Assembly (NCBI GenBank): GCA_026986775.1
Contig: JALSNX010000030.1
Span: 79,483 to 143,482, forward strand
Source: a candidate division WOR-3 bacterium
Lineage (GTDB): Bacteria > Hydrothermota > Hydrothermia > UBA1063 > CAJXJZ01
Direction of reading: 5' to 3'
Length of the DNA: 64,000 bases
Position 1 is the first letter of the stretch. Every line of letters begins with the position of its first letter. Below are positions 10,885-37,931 of the stretch, piece after piece. The notes beneath the pieces were generated by a model. That model was not told the origin of the DNA. It saw only the letters and a list, made by a program, of their open reading frames with translations, and ran no database searches. A program made the position numbers and the translations under genes.

Positions 10885-10901
10885 ACCATACACCTCCTTT
10901 T

Positions 10902-11921: not shown

Positions 11922-12476
11922 TTAAAAGAAATCCTGAGTTACATATATCTCACCATCTTCTGTAATAAACACGCCTATCCCTTCTTTTTCAAAATTGGCA
12001 TTCAGAATATTTTTCCTGTGGCCCTTGCTGTGCATCCATCCTTCTATGATTTCACTGGCAATGGCTTCAGTGGTTTTATATATGTATGTTCTTTTGTCCG
12101 AGGGGTATACATAATAATGGCTGAATGTGTAAGTTTTAAATATGTTTTCTCCCAGACCAATTAAAATATACCCGTTTTTACTTCTTTCTATTTTGTAGTG
12201 ATGTCTGAGAGCTCTCTCATCAGGACCTTCTCCTTTTTTGTTTATATGGGAAAAGTAATTGTTTCTGGCCATGTCTTCGCTGTGCTCTCGCGCAATTTTT
12301 GCAAGTTTTTTGTCCCACTTTAACGGTTTTAGCCCTCTTTTTTTTCTCTCCCTGTTTACGAGAAGGTGAATCTTTTTTTCAAGATATGTGCTTAAAGGGA
12401 TATTCTTTTTGGAAGATAGAGCAGATATGCACGATTCAAGTAGAATGAGTATTGCTATGAGATAAATCTTCTTCAC
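11922..12476 (-). CDS. secreted CAP/SCP (PR-1-like, YkwD-type) domain protein
   Basis: GTG start with a GGAGG RBS. Signal peptide. CAP-domain hallmarks: HSEDMARNNYFSH, GENI, IIEGWMHSKGHRKNILNANFEKEGIGV. Confidence 0.75.
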   Translation of the reverse strand: MKKIYLIAILILLESCISALSSKKNIPLSTYLEKKIHLLVNRERKKRGLKPLKWDKKLAKIAREHSEDMARNNYFSHINKKGEGPDERALRHHYKIERSKNGYILIGLGENIFKTYTFSHYYVYPSDKRTYIYKTTEAIASEIIEGWMHSKGHRKNILNANFEKEGIGVFITEDGEIYVTQDFF

Positions 12477-17766: not shown

Positions 17767-17866
17767 CTGTGACATGTCACAGTTGGTGTGACTTTCCCGT
17801 CACTGTGCTAAATTAAGGCAGCATATATAATTTACTATCATAAGTGTGACATCAAAGGTGTGACAT
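17767..17866 (+). promoter_or_regulatory. cluster of GTGACAT-type sites: perfect 16-bp palindrome CTGTGACATGTCACAG, inverted repeat TGTGA-N8-TCACT and two direct GTGTGACAT repeats (candidate UAS / operator)
   Basis: The palindrome lies at 17767-17782, directly after the stop of the previous gene. gTGTGActttcccgTCACt lies at 17786-17804. GTGTGACAT occurs at 17844-17852 and 17858-17866. The whole cluster sits about 50-150 nt upstream of a sigma-54 promoter. A similar cluster is present upstream of the 28252 gene. Confidence 0.5.
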
Positions 17867-17914: not shown

Positions 17915-17929
17915 TGGCACTTAAATTGC
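17915..17929 (+). promoter_or_regulatory. sigma-54 (RpoN) -24/-12 promoter, TGGCAC-N5-TTGC
   Basis: tggcacttaaattgc matches the TGGCACG-N4-TTGC consensus at every conserved position. The GC of the -12 element is 31 nt upstream of the ATG at 17960. Confidence 0.7.
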
Positions 17930-17959: not shown

Positions 17960-20824
17960 ATGAAATATCTGTTATTATTGTGGCTTATTGGATTTTTGAA
18001 TGCACAGGGTTATGAAGATATTGTGATAAAGGACACGATAGGATTAATAAGGGAACTTCCCAGAAGGGGAAAAGGATATAGCGTATGTATTGATACTGGA
18101 GGCAATTATGTATTCGCAGGTTATGCTGAAGAGCCGTATGATGCGTGGCTGGTGAAGTACAACTCTCAATTGCGTGATACTGTATGGATGCGGTTTTATG
18201 GGGGAGACGGGGATGATAGAATATACGATATGGCAATAGACAGCATGGGAAGTTATGTTTTGGTTGGTTATACCGAATCTTATGGTGCAGGCGGAAAGGA
18301 TGTGTGGATTTTAAAGATTGATCCTGAGAATGGTGATACGATATGGACGGATGTACTGGGTGGTGGAAATGATGACATTGCGTATGGAATAACTGTTGAC
18401 AGGGATGGGAACTATGTTATTACGGGTGAAACAAAATCATATGGCGATGATAATGGAGATTGTTTTATCCTGAAGATGAGGCCGAATAAGGACGCAATAT
18501 GGTTTAGAAGATACGGAACAGATCTGGAAGATGGCGGTTATGATATTGCCGTTGATACATCTGGAAATTATGTTGTGGCAGGACTTTATAATTTTGCATG
18601 GGAAAGTTCTTGGGGTGATGTATGGGTTTTGAAAATAGAATCTGATAGCGGTGATACTATATGGACACACAATTATGGTGATTCACAGGGTCAGATAGGT
18701 TATGGAATAGTGGTTGATGATAGTAACAGGTATGTTGTATCCGGGAAAACTTATCTTCCCGGGGCCAATGACAATGTATGGGTATTAAGGATTGATTCAC
18801 AGACAGGAGGACTGTTATGGGAGAGAAATTATGGTGCAGATGGAGGTGAAAGGGGATACAGTATTGTGCAGGATGTTGATGGGTTTTATATCATTGCCGG
18901 TTTTACTGCATCTTTCGGAGAGGGAGGACTTGATGCATGGGTTGTGAAAATAAGCCCTTCCTCCGGTGATACGGTGTGGACACATACGTATGGAACGGAA
19001 GATGACGATAGGGCAGAGGATATAATAGTGGTAAATGACAGTCTTTACATGATGTGCGGGTTTGATGCATCCCATTTTACAGCAAGAGAGATTAAAAGCA
19101 GTGATGGAACAGTATCTGATAGCATGGATTTTTCCATAAAACGGCTGGATATGGCCGCACTGGATGATAGAGGCTATGGTATTGCACTGGATTCATCAGG
19201 TTTTTATGTTATTACGGGTTATTCTGGAACCTATGAAACAGGTGAGGATGCATTGATTGTAAAGTATGATCCACAAATACATGACACTGTCTGGGCAAAA
19301 TTATATGGTGGAAGTGGTAATGATGGATGTTACGCCGTGAGTGTGGACAGAATTGGCTACTATGTTCTGGCGGGTTTTACGGAATCAGAAGGTGCCGGGG
19401 GCAAAGACTTCTGGGTTCTAAAGATATCTCCTCTTGATGGTGATACTATATGGACAAGACATTATGGAGGCAGTAGTGATGATGTTGCAAAGGGTATTGC
19501 AATTGATGATGACAACAATTACATTATTGTGGGGTACACAAAGTCTTATGGGGCAGGAGGAGGTGACCTCTGGATTTTAAAGATAAATTCTCAGAATGGG
19601 GATACTATCTGGTCCCGTATTTATGGTGGTAGTGAATTTGAAGGAGGAAATGGTGTTGCTGTGGATACTGCCGGTGATTATATAGTGTGTGGAAATACAT
19701 GGACCTATGACCCTGGAAACCTTGAAAATGTCTGGATCTTGAAAATAAATCATGAAACGGGTGATACCTTATGGACAAAGAGTTATGGGGACGAAGGGGG
19801 GCAGTGCGCTTTTGATGTGATTGTAGATAGAGACGGTAACTATGTTATTTCCGCAAAAACAACTTTTCATTACACGGATGATGTGTGGGTTTTAAAGGTA
19901 AATCCCATAACCGGGGATACATCCTGGACAGTGCATTACGGAACAGATAGAAATGAGAAGGGGTACAGTATCGCACAGGATAGGGAAGGATACTATGTTG
20001 TGGCGGGCTTTACGGACAAAAGGGGCACCAATAATCCGGATTACTATATTGGTAAAATCTCTCCTGATTCCGGAAAGTTGCTTTTTACAAGGAGATTAGG
20101 AGGAAATGGTGTTGACCGTGCGGAAGGAGTAATCGTTGACGATGACAGTTTTTATGTGGTGATTGGTTATTCAAATTCAACGTACAACGGGGATTATGAT
20201 GTTTATCTCGTAAAATACAACCCGTGGGATGAGAATCCACCAGTTATAGATAGTGTGACACGGATTGAAGATGATGATACCTACCCATACGGTCCCTATG
20301 AGATATGGGCTACAATAATGGACTCTTATTCCGGAGTAATTGAAGCGGTTTTACACTGGAAAACCGAACTTGATACATATTACAGGGATGTGGTTATGAC
20401 TGGTACACCATATAGCAAATTCAGGGCAACCATTCCAGAGATATTTACAACCATTGATAGCCTTAAATTGTTTTACTATGTAACAGCGAGAGATGGTGCA
20501 GGCAACGAGGCTGTTTCTGATACCCATGATTTTTATATCATAACAACATCTCATATAAAGGAGAAGCAGAATAACAGTGATATAGTTGTAAAAATGCCCT
20601 CCATTGTCAGAGGGAACAATTTAAAAGTATTGCTTTCCCTTAAAGAAGGCACAGAATACAGTCTGAGTGTGTTTTCAAAAGTTGGCAGGCTTGTTTGGTC
20701 AAAGCATGATGTTTTTACCTTCAAAGAAAATACTTTTCTTATGCCCGAATTTAAAAGAGGCGTTTATTTTCTTGAAATAAGGACCAAAAACAAAAGAAGA
20801 ATAGTGAGGTTTGTTGTAATTTAG
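17960..20824 (+). CDS. secreted T9SS cargo protein: SBBP-like beta-propeller repeats, one ~107-aa pre-CTD domain, T9SS C-terminal sorting domain
   Basis: Signal peptide MKYLLLLWLIGFLNAQG. About 14 repeats of ~47 aa with the pattern D.WxLK.D...GDTxWT..YGG...D.A.xI.VD.DGNYVxxG.T.SYGAGG. The C-terminal ~75 aa (SLSVFSKVGRLVWS...RGVYFLEIRTKNKRRIVRFVVI) fits a type-A Por secretion tail. Confidence 0.85.
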   Translation: MKYLLLLWLIGFLNAQGYEDIVIKDTIGLIRELPRRGKGYSVCIDTGGNYVFAGYAEEPYDAWLVKYNSQLRDTVWMRFYGGDGDDRIYDMAIDSMGSYVLVGYTESYGAGGKDVWILKIDPENGDTIWTDVLGGGNDDIAYGITVDRDGNYVITGETKSYGDDNGDCFILKMRPNKDAIWFRRYGTDLEDGGYDIAVDTSGNYVVAGLYNFAWESSWGDVWVLKIESDSGDTIWTHNYGDSQGQIGYGIVVDDSNRYVVSGKTYLPGANDNVWVLRIDSQTGGLLWERNYGADGGERGYSIVQDVDGFYIIAGFTASFGEGGLDAWVVKISPSSGDTVWTHTYGTEDDDRAEDIIVVNDSLYMMCGFDASHFTAREIKSSDGTVSDSMDFSIKRLDMAALDDRGYGIALDSSGFYVITGYSGTYETGEDALIVKYDPQIHDTVWAKLYGGSGNDGCYAVSVDRIGYYVLAGFTESEGAGGKDFWVLKISPLDGDTIWTRHYGGSSDDVAKGIAIDDDNNYIIVGYTKSYGAGGGDLWILKINSQNGDTIWSRIYGGSEFEGGNGVAVDTAGDYIVCGNTWTYDPGNLENVWILKINHETGDTLWTKSYGDEGGQCAFDVIVDRDGNYVISAKTTFHYTDDVWVLKVNPITGDTSWTVHYGTDRNEKGYSIAQDREGYYVVAGFTDKRGTNNPDYYIGKISPDSGKLLFTRRLGGNGVDRAEGVIVDDDSFYVVIGYSNSTYNGDYDVYLVKYNPWDENPPVIDSVTRIEDDDTYPYGPYEIWATIMDSYSGVIEAVLHWKTELDTYYRDVVMTGTPYSKFRATIPEIFTTIDSLKLFYYVTARDGAGNEAVSDTHDFYIITTSHIKEKQNNSDIVVKMPSIVRGNNLKVLLSLKEGTEYSLSVFSKVGRLVWSKHDVFTFKENTFLMPEFKRGVYFLEIRTKNKRRIVRFVVI

Positions 20825-20842
20825 AAAACAAGGGAGGTTTTT

Positions 20843-23800
20843 ATGAAAAGGTTAATTGTAATACTCTTCATGGTATCACTACTCAAAGCCCAGAACTTCG
20901 GGGATGTTATCCTTGAGGATACCTTTGGGCTATATACTCCGGGTTCCGGGAATGGGGTAGCATGGGATGATCATGATAACACGGTAATCATAGCAGGTTA
21001 TAAAAGGGCTCATGGTTCGGCTGTAAAAAAAGGATGGCTTATTAAATATGACCCGTTAAGTGATGATACGATCTGGAGCAGGTTCTATGGCAATTATAAG
21101 TATGACTTTTTCAACGATGTGGCTTATGATCCTTCGGGGTATTATGTGGCAGTGGGTGCTTCAGCTACATCTTCAAGTGTTGATTTCTGGATTTTGAAAC
21201 TGACTACTGATGGAAATGTTGAATGGCAGGGAATATACGGGAATCCTTCGCTTTATGATGAAGCAAAGGCAGTTACGCTTGATAGTGCTGGTGATTATGT
21301 TGTGGTGGGATATGAAAGAGATTCAGACGGTGTAGATAAAGCGGCGATTTTAAAGATAGATGCTAACACTAATGATACTGTGTGGACAAGAGTTTACAAT
21401 ACACCGGACACGAGCCGTCTTTATGATGTTTTCATTGACCCCAATGGATATTATGTAGGGGTTGGAGAGATTTACGAGGCAGGATACGGATGGAAAATGG
21501 CGCTTTGGGTGATAGCACCTAACAATGGTGACATTGTGGGCGGAGATGAATACGGCACAAGTGGGAGCAATCACAGGGGCCGCTGTGGCCTTATGAGTTC
21601 TGATAACAACTTCATTATTGCAGGCTATACGGATGTAAATGGCGACAAAGACTATGAAATTTTGAAAATAAAATATTCCGACTTTAGTGTTATATGGGAT
21701 AGCACTTATGCTATCAGCGGAGATCAGGAGGCATGGGAGATAACGAGAATAAATGAGGATGTTTATGTTGGAGGGTACTCTTCGGAAAAAGGAAATAAAG
21801 ATGGCTTTATGATGGTAATAGACGATGGATTTGGCAGAGTTGTAGATATGGACCTTAATGGTTTATCTGATGTTGATGACTGGGAAAAAAGTGTCGTCGT
21901 GTATCAGGATACCATCCTCAGTGTGGGTGGAAGCGAAAATGAGCATCTTCTTACACATATAAGGCATTCCCAGAATATCAGAGACAGTCATCTAAAAGAC
22001 CTGTCTCTGCGTATAGGTTATGAGGATAGAGCATATGCCATTGCCATTGATTCTTCTGGAAATTACATTATAGTGGGAAATACCCATTCGCCCGATGATG
22101 CAGACCACTGGCAGATACTGGCTGTAAAATACGACCCTGTACAGGATAGAGTTTTATGGTGGAAAGTTTACAGTCAGAGATGGGGGGACAGTAAAGCCAA
22201 TAAAGTTATTGTTGATAGAGACGGATATTATGCTATAGCGGGTTATACTGTAAACTCTTCGGGAAATAAAGACGTATGGGTTTTGAAACTCAATCCCAAT
22301 ACGGGTGATACTGTGTGGACAGGGGTCTTTGGTGGTGACAGTGACGAAGTTGCAATGGACATAATAGAGGATTTAAACGGTGATTATGCAGTTGCAGGTT
22401 ATACTACATCTTATGGTGCAGGCCGGGAGGATGGCTGGCTTTTGGTGCTTAATGCTTCAACGGGAGATACTCTTTATACAAAAACATACGGTGGTTCCGA
22501 GTATGATGTATTTAACGCAATAGCAGAGGATAATGGTTATTACATTCTGGCAGGTGTATCTTCCGAACTGCACGGGTGGGGTGATGACTGGATTTTAAAG
22601 GTTGATGCTCAAAATGGGGATACTGTGTGGCAAAGATACTATGGGGACCAAGAGGGTCAGATTGCCTATGATGTTATTGTGGATAGAGACGGTAACTATG
22701 TGGTAGGTGGTAAAACATATACAAATTCCACCCAAGATGATGTCTGGGTTTTAAAGATAGAGAGCGATAGCGGTGACACAATATGGACAAAGTCCTACGG
22801 AGGCTCAGATTCAGAAAGAGGCTTCAGCATAAGAGAGGATAAGGAGGGCTTTTATGTGATAGCAGGTTTCACAAGGTCATATGGTGCAGGCTCGTCAGAT
22901 TACTGGGCTTTAAAACTTGACCCCGAAAATGGTGCTACGCTGGGCCAAAAAACCTTCGGTGGTACAGGGGATGACATGGCAGAGTGTGTATCAGTGGATG
23001 ACAGCAACCATTATGTCATAACAGGTTTCTCCAATTCCACCACTACAGGTGGTTATGATTTTTACACCGTAAAAATATATCAGGGCGATAACCTCCCGCC
23101 AGTGTTTGATTCAATAACGCAACTTCCTAATGACACAACCCTGCCATTCGGGCCCTATCAGGTGGATGTTAAAATAACGGATAATCTTTCGGGGGTTGAC
23201 AGAGGCAGGCTGTACTGGAAGTCATCCGAAGATGCTGATTTTTCCTACAGTTCTTTGACATACAATACTAACAACTGGTGGGGTGCAAGTATTTCGGAGA
23301 TAAACATTACAGGAGATAGTGCCCTCGTCTATTATTATGTTGATGCTTATGATTCCGCAGGAAATTATGGAGTATCGGATACTCTCAGTTTCTGGGTCAT
23401 AAAGCCCGACACGGAGCCACCTTTAATAGATTCTCTTACACAGGTGGATAAAGACACAACCATTCCTCATGGCCCTTATGAAGTAAGGGTAAAGGCATGG
23501 GATGAATATAGGGGCGTAAACAATGTTCGTCTTTACTGGAAGGATGAGGCATCAAGTACATTTACGGAGAGTTTCATGGACAGTCTCGGTGGTGACTGGT
23601 GGGTAGATTCCATACCGGAGCAGGTATTAAACAACGACAGCACGGTGATTTACTACTATGTTATAGCAGAGGACAATGCTGGCAATACGAGTTATTCGGA
23701 TACCATTTCATTTCGGGTAATAGACCCTGACACAACGGTGCCTCAAATAGATTCATTAACACAACTTGAAAAAGACACCACCATACCGCATGGACCCTAC

Positions 23801-26800
23801 GAGGTTATGGTGAAGGCATGGGATAATTATAAAGGCATGGGCAATGTTGAGTTCTACTGGAAGAGCGCAGGAGATACTGTATTCACCGAGAGTTTCATGG
23901 ACAGTCTCGGTGGTGACTGGCGGATAGATTCCATACCGGAGCAGGTATTAAACAACGACAGCACAGTTATTTACTACTATGTTATAGCAGAGGACAATGC
24001 AGGCAATACGACTTATTCAGATACCCTTTCATTCTGGGTAATAGACCCGGATACAACTATACCTCTTGTGGATAATCTCACACAACTTGAAAAAGATACA
24101 ACCATACCGCATGGCCCCTATGAAATCAAGGTGGAGGGCTATGACAATTACAAGGGCCTTAATAGTGTAAAACTTTACTGGCGAAGAAATACAGATACTG
24201 TTTTTAATGAAAGTTCCATGATTGATTATGATTCAACACATTACTGGGTAGACTCTATACCTGAACAGGTACTTAATAACGATAGTGTTGAGATTTATTA
24301 CTATGTAATGGCGGAGGATGTGGGTGGCAACCGTGCGTACACGGATACCCTCTCTTTCTGGGTAATAGACCCTGACACAACGGTGCCTCAAATAGATTCA
24401 TTAACACAACTTGAAAACGACACCACCATACCGCATGGACCCTACGAGGTTAAGATAAAGGCATGGGATGATTATAAGGGTATGGGCAATATGAAGTTTT
24501 ACTGCAAGAGCGCGGAGGATACTGTATTCACAGAGAGTTTCATGGATAGTCTTGGTGGTAACTGGTGGGTGGATACGATACCGGAAGAGGTATTAAACAA
24601 CGACAGCACAGAGATTTATTACTATGTTATAGCAGAAGACAATGCGGGCAATACGAGTTATTCGGACACCCTCTCTTTCTGGGTAATAGACCCCGACACA
24701 ACAGTGCCAGAGATAGATTCATTAACGCAAATTGAAAAAGACACCACCATACCGCATGGACCCTACGAGGTTAAGGTGAAGGCATGGGACGATTATAAAG
24801 GCATATCAAATGTTAAGTTCTACTGGAAAAATGATGCATCTGGAACATTTACGGAGAGTTTCATGGACAGTCTCGGTGGTAATTGGTGGGTGGATTCCAT
24901 ACCTGAGCAGGTATTAAACAACGACAGCACAATAATTTATTACTATGTTGTAGCCGAAGATATAGGCGGCAATATTACCTGTTCGGATACCTTGAGTTTC
25001 TGGGTAATAGACCCCGACACCTTACCACCTGAAATTGACTCACTCACGAAGGTTTTAAGCGATACTACCTTACCTTTTGGACCCTATGAGGTTAAGGTGA
25101 AGTCATGGGATGAGTATGGTAGTATTCAGGATGTAAAATTCTACTGGAAAAACGATACAATGTCTGATTTCACAGTGGGGAATATGGCATATCTGGGTGG
25201 GGATTGGTGGGTAGATTCTATACCACAGCAGGAATTTGCCGCCGACAGTATGTCTATTCTTTACTATGTGGTATCAGAGGATAGTGCAGGCAATTCAACC
25301 ATAACAGATACCATGAGTTTCTGGATGGTAAAGCCCGACACGGAGCCACCTTTAATAGATTCTCTCACGCAGGTGGATAAAGACACGACAATACCTCATG
25401 GTCCTTATGAAATAAGGGTAAAGGCATGGGATGAGTACAGGGGCGTAAGCAATGTTCGTCTTTACTGGAAGGATGACACATCAAGTACATTTACGGAGAG
25501 TTTCATGGACAGTCTCGGTGGTGACTGGTGGATAGATTCCATACCGGAGCAGATATTAAACAACGACAGCACAGTTATTTATTACTATGTTATAGCCGAG
25601 GACAATGCCGGTAATACGAGTTATTCGGATACCATTTCATTCTGGGTAGTAGACCCTGATACAACAGTACCACAGATAGATTCAGTGACACAGCTTGAAA
25701 GAGACAATAACCCACCTTACGGGCCATATGATGTATGGAGCAAGGTAAAAGATGAATACAGGGGACTTGCTGATGTTGAACTCTACTGGAAAAAGGAATC
25801 CCAGCCGGCATTCATACAGGTTTCTATGTCAGGGACTTCAGATGACTGGTGGTACGGTAGTATACCCGAGCAGACGCTTGATACTGATAGCATAAGAATT
25901 GTTTACTATGTAAAAGCAACCGATCTGGGAGGAAATACTTCATATTCTGATACTTTGAGTTTCTACATAGTAAAACCCGATACCATGGCTCCTCAGATAG
26001 ATTCCCTTACACAGGTTGATAACGACTCAACCGCTCCTTATGGTCCCTATGAAGTCAGAGTGAAGGTGACAGACCTTTACAAGAAAGCAGGAAGTCTATT
26101 TGGTAAAGGTGTGTTAAAAGACATAAAGGACAAGGAGACATCACAAGTGAAACTCTACTGGAAACTGGAGACAGAGGCCGTTTTCAACGAAAACAGTATG
26201 GCTTATCTTGGTAACAACTGGTGGATAGACAGCATTCCAGAGGAGAGTTTCAGCACAGATAGCGTAAGAGTTCTTTATTATGTGAGTGCCATGGATGATG
26301 CCGGTAATACTTCATATTCGGATACCCTGTCATTCTGGCTTATAAAACTTGATACCGTAAAACCTGTAATAGATACGGTTACACAGATTGAAAGGGATTC
26401 GGTGCCTCCTTATGGCCCCTATGAGGTATGGGTAAATGCCACAGATAACAAAGGAGTAAAATACACAAGGCTTTACTGGAAAAGGGCATCTCAGCCGGCA
26501 TTTGTTCAGATTGATATGAACCATGCAGCAGGGAACTGGTGGGTTGATAGTATTCCAGAGCAGACACTCAATCAGGATAGCGTATTGATACTATACTACG
26601 CTGAAGCAGTTGATTCTTCGGGCAATACATGTATTTCGGACACATTGGGGTTCTGGATTGTAAGCCCTGATACAATGCCGCCTGTGATAGATTCCCTTGC
26701 TCAGATTGAAAATGATACAATGCCACCCTATGGCCCTTATGAAGTTAGAGTAAAAGTTACAGATAGTAGAAAAGGACAGGTTGTTTTCGGCATTTATAAA

Positions 26801-28009
26801 AACAATAAGCATATTGCCTTATTGAATGGTAAAGATGCATTTCTTGATAAATCAGCAGGAAAAGGTGTAGGAAGTGTGAAACTTTACTGGAAAAACGACC
26901 AGGATGCTGTATTCCATGAAAGCGATATGAGCCTCCAGAGTGGTGACTGGTGGATAGATACAATACCACAGCAGAGTCCTGCTACGCATACCATGGGTGT
27001 TATATATTATGTCAAAGCTACAGACGAGGCGGGTAATACGGCTTATTCTGATACATTGAGTTTTGTTATAGTCACACCCGATACAACACCGCCGGTAATA
27101 GACTCCCTTACACAACTTGAAAACGATACTACATTCCCGCATGGTCCGTATAATATAGATGTCAAGGTAATGGATGATTACAGGGGCGTTTCAGGTGTAA
27201 CGCTTTACTGGAGAACCTCACTGATGTCTGACTTTTCACACGATGCCATGGTTAATATCTCAGGCAACTGGTGGCATGATACGATACCGCAGATTGACTT
27301 TACCAGTGTTGATAGTGTTGAGATTTTCTATTTCGTGACTGCAGCTGACTCATCTTCAAATATGTCTGTCTCGGACACTTTGAGTTTCTGGGTAATAAAC
27401 CCCGATACCACACCACCCGAGATAGATTCCCTTACACAGATAGAAAACGACTCAACCTCTCCTTATGGACCCTATGAGGTCTGGGTTAAGGTGGTGGATG
27501 GTTATACGGGTGTGGACAGTGTTAAATTGCTCTATAAGAAACAGTCTCAGCCTGCCTTTGTAGAAAGTAATATGAGTTATGTTGCTCAGAACTGGTGGGT
27601 GGATACAATCCCTGAACAGAGCCTTCAGGCGGAAGATAGTGTAATAGTTATGCTCTACTACATATATGCCATTGATAATGCCGGAAATGAAGTCGTCTCT
27701 GATACTCTGAGTTTTGAACTGATAAATCCGGAATATCTAATAGAAGAAGGGAAGTCTATCACACAATTTGGCGTGAAAATCCCGTCCGTGTGCAGAAACA
27801 GATTGAGTTTTGTCTTTATGGCGCCGTCTTCAGATATATACAGCGTAAAAGTATATTCTGTAAACGGCAGGCTCTTATTCAATGACAGAGGAAAAATAAA
27901 GAGAGGATTGACACTCATGAATCTTCCGCTGCATAAAGGTGGTCTTTACTTTGTAAGGATAAAATTCCATGGAAAAACATACTATGGAAAGGTTCTTCTG
28001 GTAAAATGA
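20843..28009 (+). CDS. giant (2388 aa) T9SS cargo protein: SBBP-like propeller repeats plus 14 tandem ~107-aa repeats plus T9SS C-terminal domain
   Basis: Signal peptide. N-terminal repeats are as in the 17960 gene. From about aa 748 there are 14 in-frame tandem copies of PDT.xP.IDSLTQ.EKDTTIPHGPYEVKVKAWD.YKG..NVKFYWK....FTESFMDSLGG.WWVDSIPEQVLNNDST.IYYYVIAEDNAGNTSYSDTLSFWVID. The C-terminus (YSVKVYSVNGRLLFND...GGLYFVRIKF...KVLLVK) is T9SS CTD-like. It is 18 nt downstream of the previous gene and probably co-transcribed. Confidence 0.85.
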   Translation: MKRLIVILFMVSLLKAQNFGDVILEDTFGLYTPGSGNGVAWDDHDNTVIIAGYKRAHGSAVKKGWLIKYDPLSDDTIWSRFYGNYKYDFFNDVAYDPSGYYVAVGASATSSSVDFWILKLTTDGNVEWQGIYGNPSLYDEAKAVTLDSAGDYVVVGYERDSDGVDKAAILKIDANTNDTVWTRVYNTPDTSRLYDVFIDPNGYYVGVGEIYEAGYGWKMALWVIAPNNGDIVGGDEYGTSGSNHRGRCGLMSSDNNFIIAGYTDVNGDKDYEILKIKYSDFSVIWDSTYAISGDQEAWEITRINEDVYVGGYSSEKGNKDGFMMVIDDGFGRVVDMDLNGLSDVDDWEKSVVVYQDTILSVGGSENEHLLTHIRHSQNIRDSHLKDLSLRIGYEDRAYAIAIDSSGNYIIVGNTHSPDDADHWQILAVKYDPVQDRVLWWKVYSQRWGDSKANKVIVDRDGYYAIAGYTVNSSGNKDVWVLKLNPNTGDTVWTGVFGGDSDEVAMDIIEDLNGDYAVAGYTTSYGAGREDGWLLVLNASTGDTLYTKTYGGSEYDVFNAIAEDNGYYILAGVSSELHGWGDDWILKVDAQNGDTVWQRYYGDQEGQIAYDVIVDRDGNYVVGGKTYTNSTQDDVWVLKIESDSGDTIWTKSYGGSDSERGFSIREDKEGFYVIAGFTRSYGAGSSDYWALKLDPENGATLGQKTFGGTGDDMAECVSVDDSNHYVITGFSNSTTTGGYDFYTVKIYQGDNLPPVFDSITQLPNDTTLPFGPYQVDVKITDNLSGVDRGRLYWKSSEDADFSYSSLTYNTNNWWGASISEINITGDSALVYYYVDAYDSAGNYGVSDTLSFWVIKPDTEPPLIDSLTQVDKDTTIPHGPYEVRVKAWDEYRGVNNVRLYWKDEASSTFTESFMDSLGGDWWVDSIPEQVLNNDSTVIYYYVIAEDNAGNTSYSDTISFRVIDPDTTVPQIDSLTQLEKDTTIPHGPYEVMVKAWDNYKGMGNVEFYWKSAGDTVFTESFMDSLGGDWRIDSIPEQVLNNDSTVIYYYVIAEDNAGNTTYSDTLSFWVIDPDTTIPLVDNLTQLEKDTTIPHGPYEIKVEGYDNYKGLNSVKLYWRRNTDTVFNESSMIDYDSTHYWVDSIPEQVLNNDSVEIYYYVMAEDVGGNRAYTDTLSFWVIDPDTTVPQIDSLTQLENDTTIPHGPYEVKIKAWDDYKGMGNMKFYCKSAEDTVFTESFMDSLGGNWWVDTIPEEVLNNDSTEIYYYVIAEDNAGNTSYSDTLSFWVIDPDTTVPEIDSLTQIEKDTTIPHGPYEVKVKAWDDYKGISNVKFYWKNDASGTFTESFMDSLGGNWWVDSIPEQVLNNDSTIIYYYVVAEDIGGNITCSDTLSFWVIDPDTLPPEIDSLTKVLSDTTLPFGPYEVKVKSWDEYGSIQDVKFYWKNDTMSDFTVGNMAYLGGDWWVDSIPQQEFAADSMSILYYVVSEDSAGNSTITDTMSFWMVKPDTEPPLIDSLTQVDKDTTIPHGPYEIRVKAWDEYRGVSNVRLYWKDDTSSTFTESFMDSLGGDWWIDSIPEQILNNDSTVIYYYVIAEDNAGNTSYSDTISFWVVDPDTTVPQIDSVTQLERDNNPPYGPYDVWSKVKDEYRGLADVELYWKKESQPAFIQVSMSGTSDDWWYGSIPEQTLDTDSIRIVYYVKATDLGGNTSYSDTLSFYIVKPDTMAPQIDSLTQVDNDSTAPYGPYEVRVKVTDLYKKAGSLFGKGVLKDIKDKETSQVKLYWKLETEAVFNENSMAYLGNNWWIDSIPEESFSTDSVRVLYYVSAMDDAGNTSYSDTLSFWLIKLDTVKPVIDTVTQIERDSVPPYGPYEVWVNATDNKGVKYTRLYWKRASQPAFVQIDMNHAAGNWWVDSIPEQTLNQDSVLILYYAEAVDSSGNTCISDTLGFWIVSPDTMPPVIDSLAQIENDTMPPYGPYEVRVKVTDSRKGQVVFGIYKNNKHIALLNGKDAFLDKSAGKGVGSVKLYWKNDQDAVFHESDMSLQSGDWWIDTIPQQSPATHTMGVIYYVKATDEAGNTAYSDTLSFVIVTPDTTPPVIDSLTQLENDTTFPHGPYNIDVKVMDDYRGVSGVTLYWRTSLMSDFSHDAMVNISGNWWHDTIPQIDFTSVDSVEIFYFVTAADSSSNMSVSDTLSFWVINPDTTPPEIDSLTQIENDSTSPYGPYEVWVKVVDGYTGVDSVKLLYKKQSQPAFVESNMSYVAQNWWVDTIPEQSLQAEDSVIVMLYYIYAIDNAGNEVVSDTLSFELINPEYLIEEGKSITQFGVKIPSVCRNRLSFVFMAPSSDIYSVKVYSVNGRLLFNDRGKIKRGLTLMNLPLHKGGLYFVRIKFHGKTYYGKVLLVK
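23085..27730 (+). repeat. array of 14 tandem ~321-nt coding repeats; several copies are nearly identical at nucleotide level
   Basis: For example, 23380-23640 and 25300-25560 differ at only a handful of positions (ttctgg.t..taaagcccgacacggagccacctttaatagattctct.ac.caggtggataaagacac...). Copies near the array ends are more divergent, including two with insertions (around 26060 and 26760). Confidence 0.9.
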
Positions 28010-28024
28010 GGAAAACTAAGCAAA

Positions 28025-28052
28025 CAGAGCCCCCATATAAGGGGGCTCTTTA
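28025..28052 (+). terminator. intrinsic terminator candidate after the 2388-aa gene
   Basis: agagccccc-atataa-gggggctct hairpin followed by TTTACTGTTTTA. Confidence 0.55.
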
Positions 28053-28060
28053 CTGTTTTA

Positions 28061-28149
28061 TGACACATTGCTGTGACATGAATGGTCACAGTTTAACATG
28101 TTGTTATGTAAGGAGTTTAATTCTGGGGTGTGACATGGAGTTATGACAT
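28061..28149 (+). promoter_or_regulatory. second cluster of GTGACAT-type sites (inverted repeat CTGTGAC-N7-GTCACAG; direct GTGTGACATG / ATGACAT)
   Basis: The sequence tgacacattgCTGTGACatgaatgGTCACAG lies at 28061-28091. The sequence GTGTGACATGgagttATGACAT lies at 28128-28149. These share their half-site with the 17767-17866 cluster. The cluster sits about 60-150 nt upstream of a sigma-54-like promoter. Confidence 0.5.
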
Positions 28150-28210
28150 TTTGAGTATTGATTTTATTGGTTTTAAAGGTGTTGGTTGTAAATCAATAAC
28201 TTATGTACTA

Positions 28211-28225
28211 TGGCTTGAAAATTGC
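28211..28225 (+). promoter_or_regulatory. sigma-54-type -24/-12 promoter candidate, TGGCTT-N5-TTGC
   Basis: tggcttgaaaattgc has GG and GC at exactly the consensus spacing, with two mismatches in the -24 hexamer. The GC is 27 nt upstream of the ATG at 28252, which has an AAAGGAGG RBS. Confidence 0.5.
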
Positions 28226-28251
28226 CGTAATACTGCAAAAGGAGGTTTTTT

Positions 28252-31200
28252 ATGAGGCGTTTTGTATTAGCCATACTTTTATCTATGGGATTTCTTCTGG
28301 CAGCAGGAGAGTCCGATATTATGTGGCAACAGACCTTCGGGTCTGATACCGATGATGTTTTTTACAGTGTATCTGTCTGGGACAGCACTCCTTATTATTA
28401 CATTGGTGGAGCTACCATGGCTGGCGGAACGAACTACGACTACTGGATTTTGGCCCTTGACCCTGGTAACAGTTCACCTGTGTGGGAATATACTTTCGGT
28501 GCCGGTGGTCATGAGCAGGCCTACGGCATATCAAATGGTTATGCTCCGGGTTATGGAGGGTTTATAGCCACCACCGGATACACATATTCCTATGGGAATG
28601 GGCAAAACGACTTAATGTCGCTTGCCATGACAGCAGGTGGTAGTTTTCTGGATACCATGCTTATAGGTGGTGCAAGTTATGATGTAGGCTACAGCGTTTT
28701 TGCCGGAGAGGATGGTACCTATGTTGATGCGGGAAGAACACACAGTTATTCTGGTGATGGAGATATGATAGTTACCAAATATATCCTGGCTGACGGCCAC
28801 ATTATTGACACCATCTGGTCACAGGTGTTTCATGCGTCAGATTCCTTTGATGTAGCAACTTCAGTTATAAGGTATCAGGATGTTGATATTGTTGGTGGAT
28901 ATACTAATGGAACTGGCAATTACGACGGGATTATACTTGTTCTGAGTGACTCTTCAGGTGAGAGAGTCGCCGATTACGAATTCAGGGGTTCTGGTAATGA
29001 TTATATCAAGGCCCTTACAGTGGATAGAGATGGCAACATAATTGGTGCTGGATATTCAACAACAGACAGTCATGGTGGTGACGATGTCTGGATTTTTAAA
29101 ATGGCGCCAGATGGCACGGTTTTATGGGATAAAAAGTATGGTGGTCCTCTTGATGACAGGGCAAACAGTGTATTCATTGATTCAAACGGAAATGTTGTTA
29201 TTGGTGGGTACACGGAAAGTTATGGACAGGGAAATGAGGATTGCTTTATCCTCTCTGTGAACCTTGTAGATGGAAAGCCAAACTGGTACAGGGTTTATGG
29301 AGGCTCGGGAACGGATATCCTGTATGGTTCCACACTCGGAAACAAGGGAGAGGGTGTGTTTGTTGGAAAAACTTCGTCTTTTGGTGCAGGTTCCTATGAT
29401 GGCTGGATTATAACGATGAACCTTGATGTTACTCCGTTAAGGATAAGTGGATTTGTTCCCCGTGTGATACCTCTTTCCACCACGAGAAAAATTTATGTGT
29501 ATGGAACCGGATTTTCAGGCTACGATGCAGGTGAGATAAACATAAACTTTGTTGATGCGTCAGGTGTCGTGCAGGCTGCGGTGCATCCTGATGAGGTGAT
29601 TTCTGATGATGAACTTGTGGCAACTGTAAACCTTTCGGGTATCCCCACTGGTTCCTACAGTGTATATATTGATGCAGGAGGAATAGTTACTACCGATACA
29701 CTAAAAGGTGTGGTTTATGTTATAAATCAGGGCGCAGATGAAAAGTATTTGAGTTATGTTAATGTGGGCAGCACGGGACCCATAGGAACCATGGCATCAG
29801 GTGATGCTGACAACGATGGCAGGATAGAACTTTACGCAGGTGGAGGCTATTATCTGGGAAGCACGCTTTACTATCCCCTTATGAAGATAAGTGGCAGTGG
29901 CGGTGGACTTTCAGTTGATACAATATGGAGTATCCGCACAGGTGCCCGTGCGATTGTTATAAGTGATGTTGATATGGATGGGAAAAATGAGATGTACATA
30001 GGTTATGGTGATTTCTCAAGTGGAACTGTTTCCAGACTCAGATGGAATGGCACCTCATGGACGGAAGATACCGTATTGAATACTGATTATGTAATTATGG
30101 GGCTTGATGCGGGCAGCATTTATGGACAGAGTAAAAGGTCACTTTATGCAGTATCCTATGACAGTACATTCTATGAGATTACAAAAACAGCTTCAGGATA
30201 CAGTAAAGACACATTTATGGTTTCAGGTTATGGTGCTTTCATAGATGTGAAATTGGGAGACCTTGAGAGGGATGGTAAGGTAAAGGCCTATGTATCAACT
30301 GCAAGTGGAAAGATTCTGGAAATAAAAAGGGATAGTTATGGCAATTTTGTCTATACCACTATTTCCGAATCTCTAATTAAAAACATAGGAACGATGGGCA
30401 GGCTCTATATAACCGATGCTGATAATAATGGGTATGAGGAACTCTATGCTTCCAGTGTTGTAGGAGTTTATGATGATATTTTTGATCTTAAGATAACATA
30501 CAATAGCGGTGCTTTTGTATTTGATACCATTGGCAGGGAGTTTATTGACTTAAGAACACAGATTATAGTTGAGGACTTAAACGGTGATGGAAAGGTAAAC
30601 CTGTACGGTACGGGATGGTATCACGGTTTTTACAAAGAACCTCTGGAAGATGGCAGTTGGGCATGCGGTGTGGGTTCGGTTTATAATGCCACAATGGAGC
30701 CGGGACAGGCGGCAGGTTATGTTGACCTTGATGGTTCGGGAAATCTCACCATATTTGCAGGCGGCGCAGGTATGCTTTACAGACTTGTGCCCCAGAATAC
30801 AGCACCACAGTTTAAAACCCTTGAGGTGTTTAAATACTTCCCACAGACTGCACCCGAAAATAAAGACTTTAAACTTGTCGTATACGGCAGGGGATTGAAC
30901 AATGCACAGGAAGTAAGACTTGAAGGTGATGCGGGAAGTTTTTCCGGAACGATAGACAGCCGATATTATCCGCGCATTGTGGTTTCTTTTAACGGGATGC
31001 CCGAAGGACACTATAACCTTCTGGTTGTCTCTGCATCCTCAACGGATACAATAAGGGATGCTGTATGTATAAATAAATCCACTTATTATCCTGATGGGAC
31101 CGCCCATATAAGGATTGATACCATGTTTTCCACACCTTCTGGTGTGCCACTTTACAGTCTTGTAAAGGGTGACCTTGATAAGGATGGCCATGTAGAACTT

Positions 31201-34200
31201 TATGCAGGAAGCGCAGGAAAGATATATAAAATCTATAAAGACCCAGTTGCAGACTCTGTTAATATTGAAGATATAGGACTGACATTTTCTTACGATGTCA
31301 GAACCCTTCTTTATGGCGATGTTGACAATAGCGGAGAGAAGAAACTCTTTTACAGGGACAGTATGGATATGGGAGTTATATATTACGATGGCTCATATCA
31401 TAAGGTTTCTTTCCACAAATATCCCAATAATGCATCAGGGTATCTGACAGATAATATAAACCTTGTGGATTTGAACGGTAACGGGTTCAATGAACTTGTT
31501 AATATGTCCTATAACGGACTTCTCAATCTGTTTGAGATATATCAGGACAGTTTTGTGCTTTCAAACACAAAGAGGATATTTACGTCAAATAGTTTTTATA
31601 CAGATGTTGATTATGGAGCTTTTGTGGGTGCACCAGATAATATGGAACTTTATGTCACGGGGACAGATGCATGCTCTGGTAGTTACTGTGATGGTAAGAT
31701 AAAGAGGATAAAATACAACTATGACCTGTGGCAGGTAATTGATGTTTATTCAAATACAGAACCCTATACCATTACCCTATCTCCCATGAAAGTTCTTGCA
31801 GATGATACAGGCAATGACGAATTATTCTTCTTTGATATGGCTGATACTGCTGTATATAGAATGACATACGGTGGCAGTGGGTATTTGAGTACAGGGGTGC
31901 ATACAACGCTGGAAAGTGAACTTATTTTTGACAGGGCTGACCTTGATAATGATGGAACTGTAGAATACTGGGGCATTGGTGATTATTATCTTCGTGAATT
32001 TCTGCTGACGGGTTCTTCCTTTACCACTGTGGACAGCGTGTATTTACCGGATGTAAATGATATTGCAGGATTTGACCTTGATGGGGATAACAAACTTGAG
32101 ATGTATGCCATAACCAGCTATGGAAAAGTTTTAAAGATACATAAAGTTTTTAAGAAGAAATTGAGGGTAAGAAAAACTGACCCTGTAATATTCTCCCGTG
32201 CCTCTGAGGATTCTCTCATTACTATTTTTGGTGGCGGATTTACACTGTTTGATAAAGATTCTTTGAATGTTAACCTGATTGATAAAAACGGTAATTCAGT
32301 CATGGTACTCAATCCGGACACAGTAATGAGCTATACGCGGCTTTCACTTCATTTACCTGTTTCTGCCATCAACCCCGGATGGTATGATATGGTAATTTCT
32401 TATGATACGATAAAATCGGATACTTTAAAAGATGCTGTGTTTATTTCAGGAGAGCCTTTAAAACATTATATATACAGAGTTGATACTATTGGACGTATTG
32501 CCTCGTCGTTAAGATGGTATATTACGAAGGCGGATATGGATGGGGACGGAAGGATGGAATACTATGTACATGATGATGGACATATATACAAAATCACCTA
32601 TAATTATGGCTCACATGCATGGAGTATAAGCACAATTTACACAGGCAATTTGTATGTTTCAAGTCTTGTGGCAGGAGATATGGACCATGATGGTAAGATG
32701 GAACTGTATTTCAGTCCCTTTGCTACAACTCCAACTCCTGTTTACTGTATAAAAATGGAGGCGGATACATACAGAGTAGATAGTATAAGTTATTTCTCCT
32801 CTGGAGCGAAAATAGGCATAGGCGATGCCGACAACGACGGTGAGGATGAACTTCTGGGTTACTCTGTGCATGGTGTTCTGAATGTATTAAACTTCAGAGA
32901 TTCCACATGGGAGAGAAAGACTTATACCATTGAAAGCGTTGCCGCTACTTCTGATATAGTGGTGGCAGATGTGGATAATGATGGATTCAATGAAATCTAT
33001 ACTTACGGTGCGCCTTCAGGACAGACAGATGCAGGTCTTATAAAGATAACACTCGCACCTTATTTAAGTTCAGAATATGTTTACGTAGATTACAATATTG
33101 CAGTGGGTGGCATAAAAATCTATGATATTGACGGCGATGGACAGGAAGAACTCTACACAGGTAGTTATGGCAGTGATGGTAAAACTACGATTTACCTATT
33201 TAGATATTTAAATTCAGGGTATTATTCCTCGGAAGTCATGAAGAATGAAGGTCTTGCAGGAGATATAGGTGTCGGTGACCTTGATAATGACGGTAAAAAC
33301 GAGATTGCCGCTGGTTTTTATTCGCTGCTTGAAATGGTAAAAGAAAATAATGATTACAAACGGATTATAACCGGCATTGATACCATAGTGGGTATTCTCC
33401 CAGCAAGTATAAATGACACCACAAGACTTGACATGCTCGTAACCACCAGAAGCGGTTATCTTGTTCACATCAGTCAGGAGCCCTTACCGATTGATTCTGC
33501 TGTATCAGTAAATGGACTCCTTACATCCATTATTCCTGTTGGTGATTCACTGATAACCGTTTTATATGGCAAAAACCTGAACAATGTGCAGAATATATAT
33601 GTTGAGAAGTCACAGGGCAGTTACCAGAAGGAGGCCACCATTTTAGAGGTATCTTCAGGTGGAAACTATGCAAAGATTGTAATACCGCCTCTTGACACAG
33701 CAGGTTACTACAATGTTATTGTCCACGGTAATGGTGATGATACACTTTACAGCGGGCTTCTGGCTAATAATATCTATTCAGAAACGGATAATGGAATTGT
33801 AGAGATAGATACTTTGAAAGATATAGGTGGAAGAAAGCATAAAGACACCTACTACTATATGAGTATAACCTCAGTTGACCTTGATAAAGACGGCAAGAAA
33901 GAGGTGTATGTCGCAGGAGACAGTTTGTGGACTGTGGACTATGTTGGTGATACCTTTGTGGTAAATTCAATTATGGACATTCCGGGAGTGGCAAACTGCA
34001 TAACATACGGCAGATTCATGAAGGATACGGTATCCCTCTTTGTGGGGACCACTTCAGGTGAAATCTATGAATTGTCACCGAATGATACGGGCTTTACCAT
34101 TTTGAAGGTATTTGACCTTTCCATGGCAGGGCTTTCTTCTTCAATAACAAATGGTATAAAGATAATGGATGTGGACAACGATAAAAACAATGAACTTATA

Positions 34201-36034: not shown

Positions 36035-36094
36035 GGGGCCCTCCGGCTTCCCCCCACACGATACCCATCTTTCGGAGGGCCCTTCTTTTTTATT
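36035..36094. terminator. bidirectional intrinsic terminator between convergent genes
   Basis: ggggccctccg...cggagggccc forms a 10-bp GC stem with a long loop. It is followed by TTCTTTTTTATT on the plus strand and by an A/T-rich run on the minus strand. It sits between the stops of the 35804 ORF and the sigma-54 activator gene. Confidence 0.6.
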
Positions 36095-37931
36095 ATAATT
36101 TATCTTTTTTTATGTCGTATTTTTCCATTATTCTGTAAAGATGTCTTCTTGATATACCCAACTTCTCTGCTGCCTTTGTTATATTAAAGTTTGTTTCTCT
36201 TAAAACCCTTTTCACCACCTCTGGATTGTTGTAGTCTCTATCTTTCTGTACATTTCTCAGCTCTTCAGGAAGATGGTGGCTCTTTATAATTTTTTCTCTG
36301 GCAGAGATTACCGCCGCTCTCGTGATGATATTTTCTAATTCCCGAATATTTCCCGGAAAGTCATACGATAGGAGTAAAGATATTGCATCCTGTGAGAGCC
36401 TTTTGTCAGGTGCTATGTTTTTCAGGAAGTGTCTTGCAAGCACAGGTATATCCTCTTTTCTTTGCCTGAGAGGCGGAAGGTAAATCTGGAAAACATTGAG
36501 CCTGTAATACAAATCTTCCCTGAAATAGCCTTTATTTAATAACTCTTTTAGGGGTCGGCTTGTTGCACCGATAATGCGTATATCTACCCTTTTTGGAGCG
36601 GGACTGCCGAGAACCTCAATCTCTTTAAATTGTATGAGTCGCAACAGTTTAGCCTGAATTTCAAGAGGCAGTTCTGCAAGTTCGTCCAGAAATAGTGTCC
36701 CACCATCAGCCATTTCAATTTTACCCTTTTTATCCTTATAGGCCCCGCTGAATGCACCCTTTTTGTAACCAAATAACTCGGCCTCAAATAATTCCTTAGG
36801 TATTGTGGCACAGTTAATGACGACAAAAGGTCCATCTTTTCTTTTGCTATTCTTATGAATTGCCTTTGCTATAAGTTCCTTACCTGTTCCACTTTCGCCA
36901 ACTAAAAGACACGGTACATCTGTTGGAGCCACTTTTGTTATTGACTCAAGGATTTCAACAAATTTCTCACTTTCTCCTATAAGTCCGGAAAAGTCATAGT
37001 GTTCCTTTAAATAGGCCAATCTCTCACGGACTTTTTTGGGATAAACAATACTTCTTGTAAGAACGGCGCTTATTTCACTGGATAGATACTCTGCCATTTT
37101 CAGGTGTGTTTTTTGAAATATGCCTTCCATTGTCCTGTTTTCAAGGTATATGACTGCCAGGAGGTTGTTTTCTTCCATGAGTGGAAAAGCCAGAACTGAC
37201 CGGATATTAAGTGACATTATACTCGTAAACGCTCCCCATGTGGGGTCCTCCACCGCATTTGAGATGATTAGAGGCTCTCTGGATTCTATAACTTTGGTGA
37301 TGATTGATCTGGGCAGTGGGTCATGAGTGGCTATATCCTCTGTGAGACCATGATAGTAAACAGGCTGGTATTCTCCGTTTAGACTTACCTTTACAATTAC
37401 CGCTCTTTCTGCTCCCGTAAGGTCTACAATGTTTTCAAATATAAATGATAAGAGGTGTTCATTATCCAGTTTGTCTATAACCTCAGTCAGGTTATAGAGA
37501 AATTTATACATAGCAAGTTCCTGCTTTAATTCCTCATGTTCATCCAAAAGAGCAATAATCTCATCTATAACTCCTGAGTACTCTTTTTTCTCGCTCCTGA
37601 GCTGGCACAGAAAATCCTTAACATTCTGTATGCTCCTGGGGTTTACATCTTCAGGAATATCTAGGCTGAATTCAAAGCTAACAGGCCCAAATCCGATTAT
37701 ATCATGGTCATTTAGCAAAACCTCGGTTGACACCGGGTTACCATTTACTGTGGTGCCGTAAGTGGAATTTAAGTCCCGCAAAAACCATTTATTGCCCTTT
37801 TTCAGGATTTCAGCATGATTTCTGGATATATATGAATTTTGAATTACAATATCTGCATCCTCTGACCTTCCTACTACAACCTTATCCTTATCAATGTTGT
37901 AAAGAGTGTCTTTTCCCTTAAGATATGGCAT
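36093..37931 (-). CDS. sigma-54-dependent transcriptional activator (enhancer-binding protein) with N-terminal FHA domain and central GAF domain
   Basis: FHA signature VVVGRSEDADIVIQNSYISRNHAEI...YGTTVNG. A GAF-like region follows. The AAA+ sigma-54 interaction domain has Walker A GESGTGKE and GAFSGA (the GAFTGA loop variant). C-terminal Fis-type HTH KAAEKLGISRRHLYRIMEKY. The ATG overlaps the kinase gene's stop (TAATG). Confidence 0.85.
   Translation of the reverse strand: MPYLKGKDTLYNIDKDKVVVGRSEDADIVIQNSYISRNHAEILKKGNKWFLRDLNSTYGTTVNGNPVSTEVLLNDHDIIGFGPVSFEFSLDIPEDVNPRSIQNVKDFLCQLRSEKKEYSGVIDEIIALLDEHEELKQELAMYKFLYNLTEVIDKLDNEHLLSFIFENIVDLTGAERAVIVKVSLNGEYQPVYYHGLTEDIATHDPLPRSIITKVIESREPLIISNAVEDPTWGAFTSIMSLNIRSVLAFPLMEENNLLAVIYLENRTMEGIFQKTHLKMAEYLSSEISAVLTRSIVYPKKVRERLAYLKEHYDFSGLIGESEKFVEILESITKVAPTDVPCLLVGESGTGKELIAKAIHKNSKRKDGPFVVINCATIPKELFEAELFGYKKGAFSGAYKDKKGKIEMADGGTLFLDELAELPLEIQAKLLRLIQFKEIEVLGSPAPKRVDIRIIGATSRPLKELLNKGYFREDLYYRLNVFQIYLPPLRQRKEDIPVLARHFLKNIAPDKRLSQDAISLLLSYDFPGNIRELENIITRAAVISAREKIIKSHHLPEELRNVQKDRDYNNPEVVKRVLRETNFNITKAAEKLGISRRHLYRIMEKYDIKKDKL

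Follow-up and report, generated by a model that had tools for sequence, protein, structure and literature searches.

Fourteen tandem Ig-like units as the probable length-variable stalk of a surface protein in a WOR-3/Hydrothermota bacterium

What is a run of fourteen copies of one domain for, in the middle of a single very long protein, and does the number of copies change? This question is raised by an open reading frame (ORF) at 20843-28009 (+) of a 64,000-nucleotide (nt) stretch of contig JALSNX010000030.1 (assembly GCA_026986775.1; hereafter the window), which is preceded by the ribosome-binding site AAGGGAGG and translates into 2388 amino acids (aa). We propose, with a probability of roughly 0.7, that the array is the length-variable stalk of a secreted, outer-membrane-anchored surface protein of the fibrillar-adhesin type. 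An earlier note on this DNA, made from the sequence, had called the repeat a probable adhesin module; its observations could be confirmed in part, the array itself being real, and its interpretation was likewise supported in part.

The array, its domain and the protein around it

Cutting the translation at the recurring PDTxxPxIDSLTQ motif gave exactly 14 head-to-tail immunoglobulin (Ig)-like units (R1-R14) at 23090-27724 (+), corresponding to aa 750-2294. The earlier note had placed 14 tandem units of about 107 aa at 23085-27730, and its consensus string agrees with the computed one. The units start at 23090, 23405, 23726, 24047, 24371, 24692, 25013, 25334, 25655, 25976, 26348, 26666, 27077 and 27401, and 12 of them are 105-108 aa long. 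The other two, R10 (124 aa) and R12 (137 aa), carry Lys/Gly-rich insertions (17 aa at about 26081-26131 and 30 aa at about 26771-26860, respectively) in the same loop, after a conserved D-x-Y. Tandem Repeats Finder reports a period of 321 with 7.2 copies (score 1761) at 23389-25706, the most regular part. Identity among the units is 40-93% for protein and 50-93% for DNA, far above chance. Sixteen columns are invariant; a WW pair, YYY, D-x-AGN and seven Asp are strongly conserved across the 14 units, and the linkers between them are short and Pro-rich (PDTxxP). The opposite strand over the ORF holds no competing ORF of at least 100 aa, and an Rfam scan of the window returned tRNA-Glu only, so the array is without an RNA element.

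The array lies between a head and a sorting domain. The protein starts with a putative Sec-type signal peptide, read from the sequence as MKRLIVILFMVSLLKAQ (20843-20893 (+), residues 1-17), which is basic at the start and hydrophobic in the core and has an A-Q site; in the model, residues 2-19 form an N-terminal helix. Then follow two seven-bladed beta-propellers of the delta-60/SBBP repeat type (20945-23089 (+), aa about 35-376 and 395-745), in which residues ~35-745 make up 14 repeats of about 52 aa. The AlphaFold model of this head (predicted local distance difference test (pLDDT) 78.7) has two all-beta halves with about 27 strands each. The NCBIfam delta-60 repeat model TIGR02608 scored 46.5 bits on it, under the cut-off, and no catalytic and no adhesive-domain family matched the head in the Pfam and NCBIfam scans. 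Its best solved match with Foldseek is the seven-bladed propeller of CylK (E 8e-21, root-mean-square deviation 2.9 A over 390 columns, 23-24% identity). Behind the array stands a C-terminal type-A sorting domain for type IX secretion (T9SS) at 27815-27997 (+), aa 2325-2385 of 2388 (TIGR04183, 26.7 bits against a cut-off of 23). The domain order is thus signal peptide, two beta-propellers, 14 Ig-like units and T9SS sorting domain, and from this architecture the label "adhesin" appears plausible.

The anchoring of T9SS cargo is known from Porphyromonas (PMC4804311, PMC5562754), and it is from such cargo and from fibrillar adhesins (PMC8286594) that we infer export and tethering here. Sec would take the protein across the inner membrane and T9SS across the outer one, and the C-terminal end would keep it tethered, so that the 14 units with their Pro-rich linkers would form a rod. 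Such a rod could hold the double-propeller head away from the cell surface, at a distance of some tens of nanometres.

The model of a single unit (R2, with the other units as the alignment) has a mean pLDDT of 94 and a predicted template modelling score of 0.85, and is all-beta with the strand arrangement of an Ig-like sandwich. In a Foldseek search of the PDB the top match was the Ig-like domain of the Porphyromonas gingivalis peptidylarginine deiminase PPAD (template modelling (TM) score 0.69, E 4e-5, 17-18% identity), followed by other E-set, fibronectin-III and Ig domains; a Deinococcus surface-layer (S-layer) protein was also among the fold matches, and SiiE stood at rank 42 (TM 0.51). 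The suggestion that the repeat is a beta-sandwich module is therefore supported. Searched against PDB sequences, the unit profile gave nothing significant, the best match again being PPAD (residues 335-403, E 0.08).

On single units no Pfam or NCBIfam model reaches its cut-off, in line with the earlier note, which could name no family for the repeat. Big_3_4 (PF13754) matched 4 of the 14 units (E 0.003 or worse, at most 14.7 bits, about 45 of 102-106 profile positions) and DUF7743 (PF24893, cut-off 27 bits) matched one of the 14 (E 0.0086); Big_13 (PF19077) was also among the best models, DUF7035 reached E 2.5e-4, and the NCBIfam OmpL47-type domain (NF047446) matched 5 of 17 units with up to 21.8 bits against a cut-off of 40 (best E 1.9e-4). 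Scores summed over the whole protein were 55.7 bits for Big_3_4 (cut-off 27.3) and 49.6 bits for Big_13 (cut-off 27). DUF7743, Big_3_4, Big_13 and the OmpL47-type domain, themselves functionally uncharacterised, share with the unit a D-x-x-P-P-x-I, then Y-Y-V-x-A-x-D-x-A-G-N, then F-x-V-x-D, but on single units stay below threshold. The units are thus not threshold members of DUF7743, while Big_3_4 and Big_13 pass their cut-offs as whole-protein sums and miss them on single units; all three families are related to the unit.

The domain is neither rare nor of a new kind. A profile search run exhaustively over 1.84 billion representative proteins returned 4207 matches at E <=1e-3, 817 at <=1e-10 and 105 at <=1e-30, many of them giant proteins with 10-40 unit copies. 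One relative (P0021) has a segment, 141-249, that the unit hidden Markov model (HMM) matches end to end (E 5e-14) and that is also its best DUF7743 stretch (153 bits for the whole protein), so the units appear to have diverged within a broad Ig-like group to which DUF7743 belongs as well. The 150 best family members have a median of 6 copies each, and 26 of them have a sorting domain like that of the focal protein (local model), often directly after the last unit. Named relatives include "PKD domain-containing" and MYXO-CTERM proteins of Myxococcales. The family is visible only by exhaustive profile search: a word-indexed protein search with the 14-unit profile gave one fragment. A genome collection searched with the 14-unit alignment gave one full-length relative, in a WOR-3 metagenome-assembled genome (MAG), and two weak partial matches in Verrucomicrobia, and a JGI metagenome scan with the head/R1 junction had no match. 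An HMM built from the 14 copies also picked up separate, single units in three more of the window's genes (E 8e-30, 7e-13 and 5e-6). Our literature search found no papers on DUF7743, on DUF7035, or on WOR-3 together with type IX secretion.

Change in the array and the rival readings

A profile search retrieved a 1959-aa ortholog (P0002) from NCBI assembly GCA_054027995.1, whose locus (L004) is syntenic: the FG-GAP gene, the sigma-54 activator and the kinase follow downstream there too. The DNA aligns in two blocks, L004 128-5395 with window 18467-23733 (96.1% identity) and L004 5032-11965 with window 24655-31581 (92.2%), and the offsets of the two blocks differ by exactly 1284 nt, or 4 x 321. 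Absent from the ortholog is the 1284-nt block of units R3-R6 (23726-25012 (+)); equivalents of R1, R2 and R7-R14 are present, most of them 93-96% identical, which gives 10 units. The ortholog keeps the register of R2 to the unit boundary and then takes that of R6/R7, switching within the shared junction GGGTAATAGACCC(T/C)GACAC. The units R3-R6 diverge among themselves by 11-36% and the two genomes by 4-8%, so the block predates their split and a deletion of four units in the L004 lineage is the simplest reading; the sister population most likely lost R3-R6. We take unequal recombination in register, or slippage, at the junction that the units share as the first of two ways in which the array evolves. 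The copy-number variation predicted in the earlier note thus found support in a syntenic ortholog with 10 units against 14, in one comparison in which both sequences come from metagenome assemblies. Two other histories were rejected: a recent amplification of R3-R6 in the focal genome, given that their differences are far above that between the genomes, and a hybrid of R2 and R6 in the position of R2, given that the ortholog's second unit (L2) follows the R2 register to about 20 nt from the unit boundary.

Over the ten orthologous units the ratio of nonsynonymous to synonymous divergence (dN/dS) between the window and L004 is 0.14 (dN 0.030, dS 0.208), against 0.24 over the propellers, so the units are under purifying selection and the protein is maintained. 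This tighter constraint on the units would also fit a different reading, in which they are the working part of the protein, as multivalent, cadherin-like and possibly calcium-dependent modules that bind, for example, polysaccharide or other cells, with the propellers as accessories. The strong conservation, across the 14 units, of residues of an exposed type (WW, YYY, D-x-AGN and the seven Asp) agrees with it, as do the many family members that consist of little besides units and the loop insertions of R10 and R12, which are kept in the 10-unit ortholog. However, conserved aromatic residues and Asp are equally expected for the core of the fold and for domain junctions, and four units can be lost while the gene stays intact. 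In other proteins a lone copy of the unit separates unrelated heads from the sorting domain, which is typical of a connector, and Pfam scans of the protein and of the units gave no carbohydrate-binding or cadherin family match. We consider this reading improbable.

High DNA identity is the exception within the array. Only 2 of the 91 unit pairs reach 85% nt identity, namely R2/R8 (298/321 nt, 92.8%) and R3/R5 (285/321, 89%); the other pairs have at most 82%, adjacent units 50-80%, and the median pair 59%. R2 (23405-23725 (+)) and R8 (25334-25654 (+)) form a homogenised pair whose similar tract slightly exceeds both unit boundaries (about 23386-23775 and 25315-25704, 90.8%). The earlier note had reported copies 1 and 7 as more than 95% identical over roughly 300 nt; the actual pair is units 2 and 8, the ranges given were 9 nt out of register, and the identity was overstated, since it is 93.3% in the best 300-nt window (97% in the best 100-nt window).

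The ortholog's equivalents of R2 and R8 (L2 and L4) are 97% identical to each other, as compared with 93% for R2 and R8; positional orthologs across the genomes are 91-93% identical and cross comparisons 92%. In the quartet of R2, R8 and their orthologs, eight two-versus-two sites group the units by genome, none by position and none crosswise, so at least one homogenising event took place after the lineages separated. Synonymous divergence is 0.115 between L2 and L4, against 0.21-0.41 between orthologs. The earlier note had offered recent duplication or gene conversion for the similar pair; because both units exist in both genomes, conversion is favoured and a fresh duplication is not. Gene conversion between non-adjacent units (R2 and R8) is thus the second mode by which the array changes.

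One could suppose that the unit number is an assembly artefact, with 14 units mis-joined or 10 collapsed, and the variation in length not real. Both sequences come from metagenome assemblies, and the name k141_565254 suggests a short-read assembly; L2 and L4 share an exact stretch of 69 nt, and the contig of another relative (L012) breaks inside such an array. In the 14-unit array, however, k-mers of 77, 99, 127 and 141 nt are all unique, and exact repeats reach 53 nt at most; four 55-mers and 97 31-mers recur, so the array would be ambiguous at k <=31. The same contig is available as ENA ERZ27262668 k141_565254 (218,306 bp) and as an NCBI/JGI/GEM contig (218,120 bp), and both give a 2388-aa protein with 14 units and one residue different. 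The earlier note had warned of a real risk of short-read collapse or expansion; with no long repeated k-mer and two agreeing assemblies, either is unlikely at the usual final k-mer sizes. R3-R6 are moreover four distinct sequences that an assembler could not invent, and the junction in L004 is a clean in-frame loss of exactly four units in an otherwise collinear gene. An artefact in unit number is on balance quite unlikely.

The single difference between the two assemblies lies at aa 1027 in R3 (23921-23923), which is Arg in the window and in the NCBI/JGI copy and Trp in the ENA assembly. This is the second position of the otherwise conserved WW pair, and the difference reflects either polymorphism within the population or a wrong consensus call in one of the assemblies. 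The L012 case, an example of an assembly that breaks inside such an array, is a JGI metagenome contig on which a distant homolog (last unit and sorting domain) stands at the contig end (1-908) with two overlapping gene calls.

We give little credence to a secreted or surface-bound enzyme with a catalytic propeller like that of CylK, or to an S-layer component, that the array only tethers: the alkylating enzyme CylK is the head's best solved match (23-24% identity), the unit's fold matches include a Deinococcus S-layer protein, and T9SS cargo is often enzymatic (PMC11205867), but propellers of this repeat type are generic scaffolds, no catalytic family matched the head in the Pfam and NCBIfam scans, and on this reading too the array would act as a stalk.

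Several points weigh against an anchored stalk of variable length. The Pfam model of the sorting domain, PF18962, scored 15.3-20.8 bits, under its cut-off of 27. None of the T9SS machinery genes (PorK/L/M/N, Sov/SprA, PorU, PorV) was found among the scanned ORFs of the window, so that it is the sorting domain that points to this secretion route. CylK, the closest solved structure of the propellers, is an enzyme, and an adhesive role of the head is putative. An Ig-like domain spans about 4 nm, which would make a stalk of roughly 50 to 55 nm with 14 units and 40 nm with 10; this length is an estimate from general knowledge rather than a computed value, and the rigidity of the rod is presumed. 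Finally, the 10-unit form comes from one MAG and could in principle be an assembly shortcut; the k-mer reasoning used for the 14-unit array does not extend to it.

A variable surface locus and its candidate regulation

Three large genes in a row (17960-20824, 20843-28009 and 28252-35802) all encode a T9SS sorting domain, which four proteins of the window carry. The first (17960-20824 (+), 954 aa) ends 19 nt before the focal gene and is its paralog, with a signal peptide, propeller repeats, one Ig-like unit (20225-20545; unit HMM E 8.2e-30) and a sorting domain (TIGR04183, 23.2 bits against 23). It has PQQ_2/SBBP and Por_Secre_tail matches, and its N-terminal propeller region is 39% identical to the focal head. 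The third encodes an FG-GAP/TIG protein of 2516 aa with one divergent Ig-like unit directly before the sorting domain. The fourth T9SS cargo (51073-55689 (+), 1538 aa) has choice-of-anchor J/cleaved-adhesin, MAM-like and lamin-tail domains and one or two weak Ig-like units. The single copy before the sorting domain in the neighbours and the resemblance to PPAD suggest that the stalk arose by amplification of a connector, of which the single unit in neighbouring cargo would be the likely ancestor. A strong terminator-like hairpin (28026-28049 (+); 9-bp stem, 7 GC pairs, T-rich tail) lies 17 nt past the stop codon of the focal gene.

The valyl-tRNA synthetase (ValRS) encoded upstream has its nearest named relatives in Candidatus Hydrothermae/Hydrothermota (62-63% identity) and candidate division WOR-3 (55-63%); the host bacterium, which is uncultivated, belongs to the WOR-3/Hydrothermota lineage. 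Four further relatives (L006, L008, L010 and L011), with about 79% DNA identity in the ValRS region and hence different species, keep the ValRS-amidase-IF-2B block and miss both propeller genes. In place of these, one has the FG-GAP gene directly (L006 14766-14969) and three have glycosyltransferase and Wzy-type polymerase genes (L008, L010 and L011, from 14781 onward). Given this differing gene content, the position downstream of the IF-2B-like gene is a variable cell-surface locus; at this distance, the absence of the propeller genes says only that the locus is not conserved. The region upstream shows an unusual concentration of eukaryote-like and surface repeat proteins, with ankyrin-repeat proteins at 7915-9159 (-) and 10902-11744 (-), an InlB B-repeat protein at 9400-10893 and a CAP-family secreted protein at 11922-12476. 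At the other end of the window, 58377-62389 (+) holds an operon for an Rnf-type ion-translocating ferredoxin:NAD oxidoreductase, in which RnfC and RnfD were identified.

Thirty nucleotides upstream of the paralog gene, which makes up a two-gene unit together with the focal gene behind it, we detected a candidate sigma-54 (-24/-12) promoter, TGGCACTTAAATTGC (17915-17929 (+)), whose function is inferred from its match and position. The pattern TGGC-N7-TTGC has four matches in the window against 1.45 expected, three of them just upstream of gene starts. These three (17915-17929 (+), 28211-28225 (+) and 9203-9217 (-)) lie 27-45 nt before the start codons of the 954-aa paralog, the FG-GAP cargo gene and an ankyrin-repeat gene, respectively. 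The motif before the FG-GAP gene is found at the same position in L004 (8586-8600) and in L006 (14926-14940), as the sole match in each locus, and is thus retained in L006 even though this is a different species. Clusters of a (G/C)TGTGACAT motif lie just upstream of both sigma-54-like promoters, at 17767-17866 and 28071-28136; these roughly 170 nt hold 7 of the 13 matches in the window, and the first cluster contains the palindrome CTGTGACATGTCACAG (17767-17782). The motifs may be bound by the enhancer-binding protein of 36093-37931 (-), a sigma-54 activator whose N-terminal part has FHA and GAF domains. Its gene adjoins, possibly with a 1-base overlap, that of a Ser/Thr protein kinase with TPR and FG-GAP-like repeats (37931-40426 (-)), an arrangement that suggests control of sigma-54-dependent surface-protein genes through phospho-threonine. 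Two further kinases and a PP2C phosphatase are encoded at 89-4885 (-).

A more far-reaching proposal joins these parts, and as a whole we find it rather improbable. The units would belong to a large uncurated family of Ig-like stalk domains, distinct from DUF7743 and Big_3_4 and comprising at least 4,200 clusters at the 50% identity level. In WOR-3-type bacteria the domain in front of the T9SS sorting domain would have given rise to a spacer of tunable length, possibly stiffened by calcium. The neighbouring paralogs with one and with 14 units would hold their related propeller heads at two different heights, and a sigma-54 promoter would switch on both genes, controlled by the FHA-domain enhancer-binding protein and its partner, the Ser/Thr kinase.

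The biology is ordinary and holds no surprise for a specialist; its use lies in annotation and as a worked example. It offers a case, drawn entirely from metagenomes and from a lineage without cultured members, of change in stalk length, with a clean four-unit difference at a conserved junction and gene conversion between non-adjacent units. The array is trustworthy at assembler k-mers of at least 77, which helps in judging similar arrays. The Ig-like domain is widespread and barely detected by current family libraries, and an alignment of the units with their relatives could serve to start a Pfam family or enlarge one, to the benefit of the annotation of thousands of giant "hypothetical" surface proteins.

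Comparison with known systems

Fibrillar adhesins, as described by Monzon, Bateman and colleagues (PMC8286594, PMC9210967), have a non-repeat head, a stalk of tandem Ig-like domains and a surface anchor at the far end. The focal protein resembles them as a long single chain with a distal head, a tandem Ig-like stalk, of which a single unit folds as a complete beta-sandwich (pLDDT 94), and an anchor signal at the far end. It differs in that its stalk domain falls outside the curated stalk families at threshold, in that its head is a double beta-propeller with no recognised adhesive domain, and in that its presumed anchor is a T9SS sorting domain in a bacterium of the WOR-3/Hydrothermota type.

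Periscope Proteins (PMC9704523) likewise combine an N-terminal head and a C-terminal tether with a stalk whose tandem domains each fold on their own, and the variation of repeat number among close relatives (here 14 against 10) is consistent with recombination between repeats. What defines the class, however, is a high identity of the repeats in coding sequence, and in the focal array the median pair has 59% identity and only two non-adjacent pairs reach 89-93%. The variation is also seen here in one MAG comparison rather than in long-read strain sets.

The Ig-like (IgSF) domain of PPAD (PDB 5ak8, 4ytb) is the best solved match to the unit both by fold and by profile, and in the neighbours of the focal gene the unit sits directly before the sorting domain, as in T9SS cargo. 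PPAD has one copy after an enzyme domain, in contrast to the 14 copies here; sequence identity is 17-18%, and the E-value of the profile match (0.08) is not significant for homology.

In the giant RTX adhesins MpIBP and SiiE (PMC5550230; PDB 2yn3), long runs of Ig-like domains project a ligand-binding region. These proteins use type I secretion instead of T9SS and have a different orientation. The focal array is also a long Ig-like run, and SiiE is among the fold matches of its unit, if a weak one (TM 0.51). With conserved Asp in the linker and in two of the loops, the junctions may be stiffened by calcium, as in the RTX extender regions.

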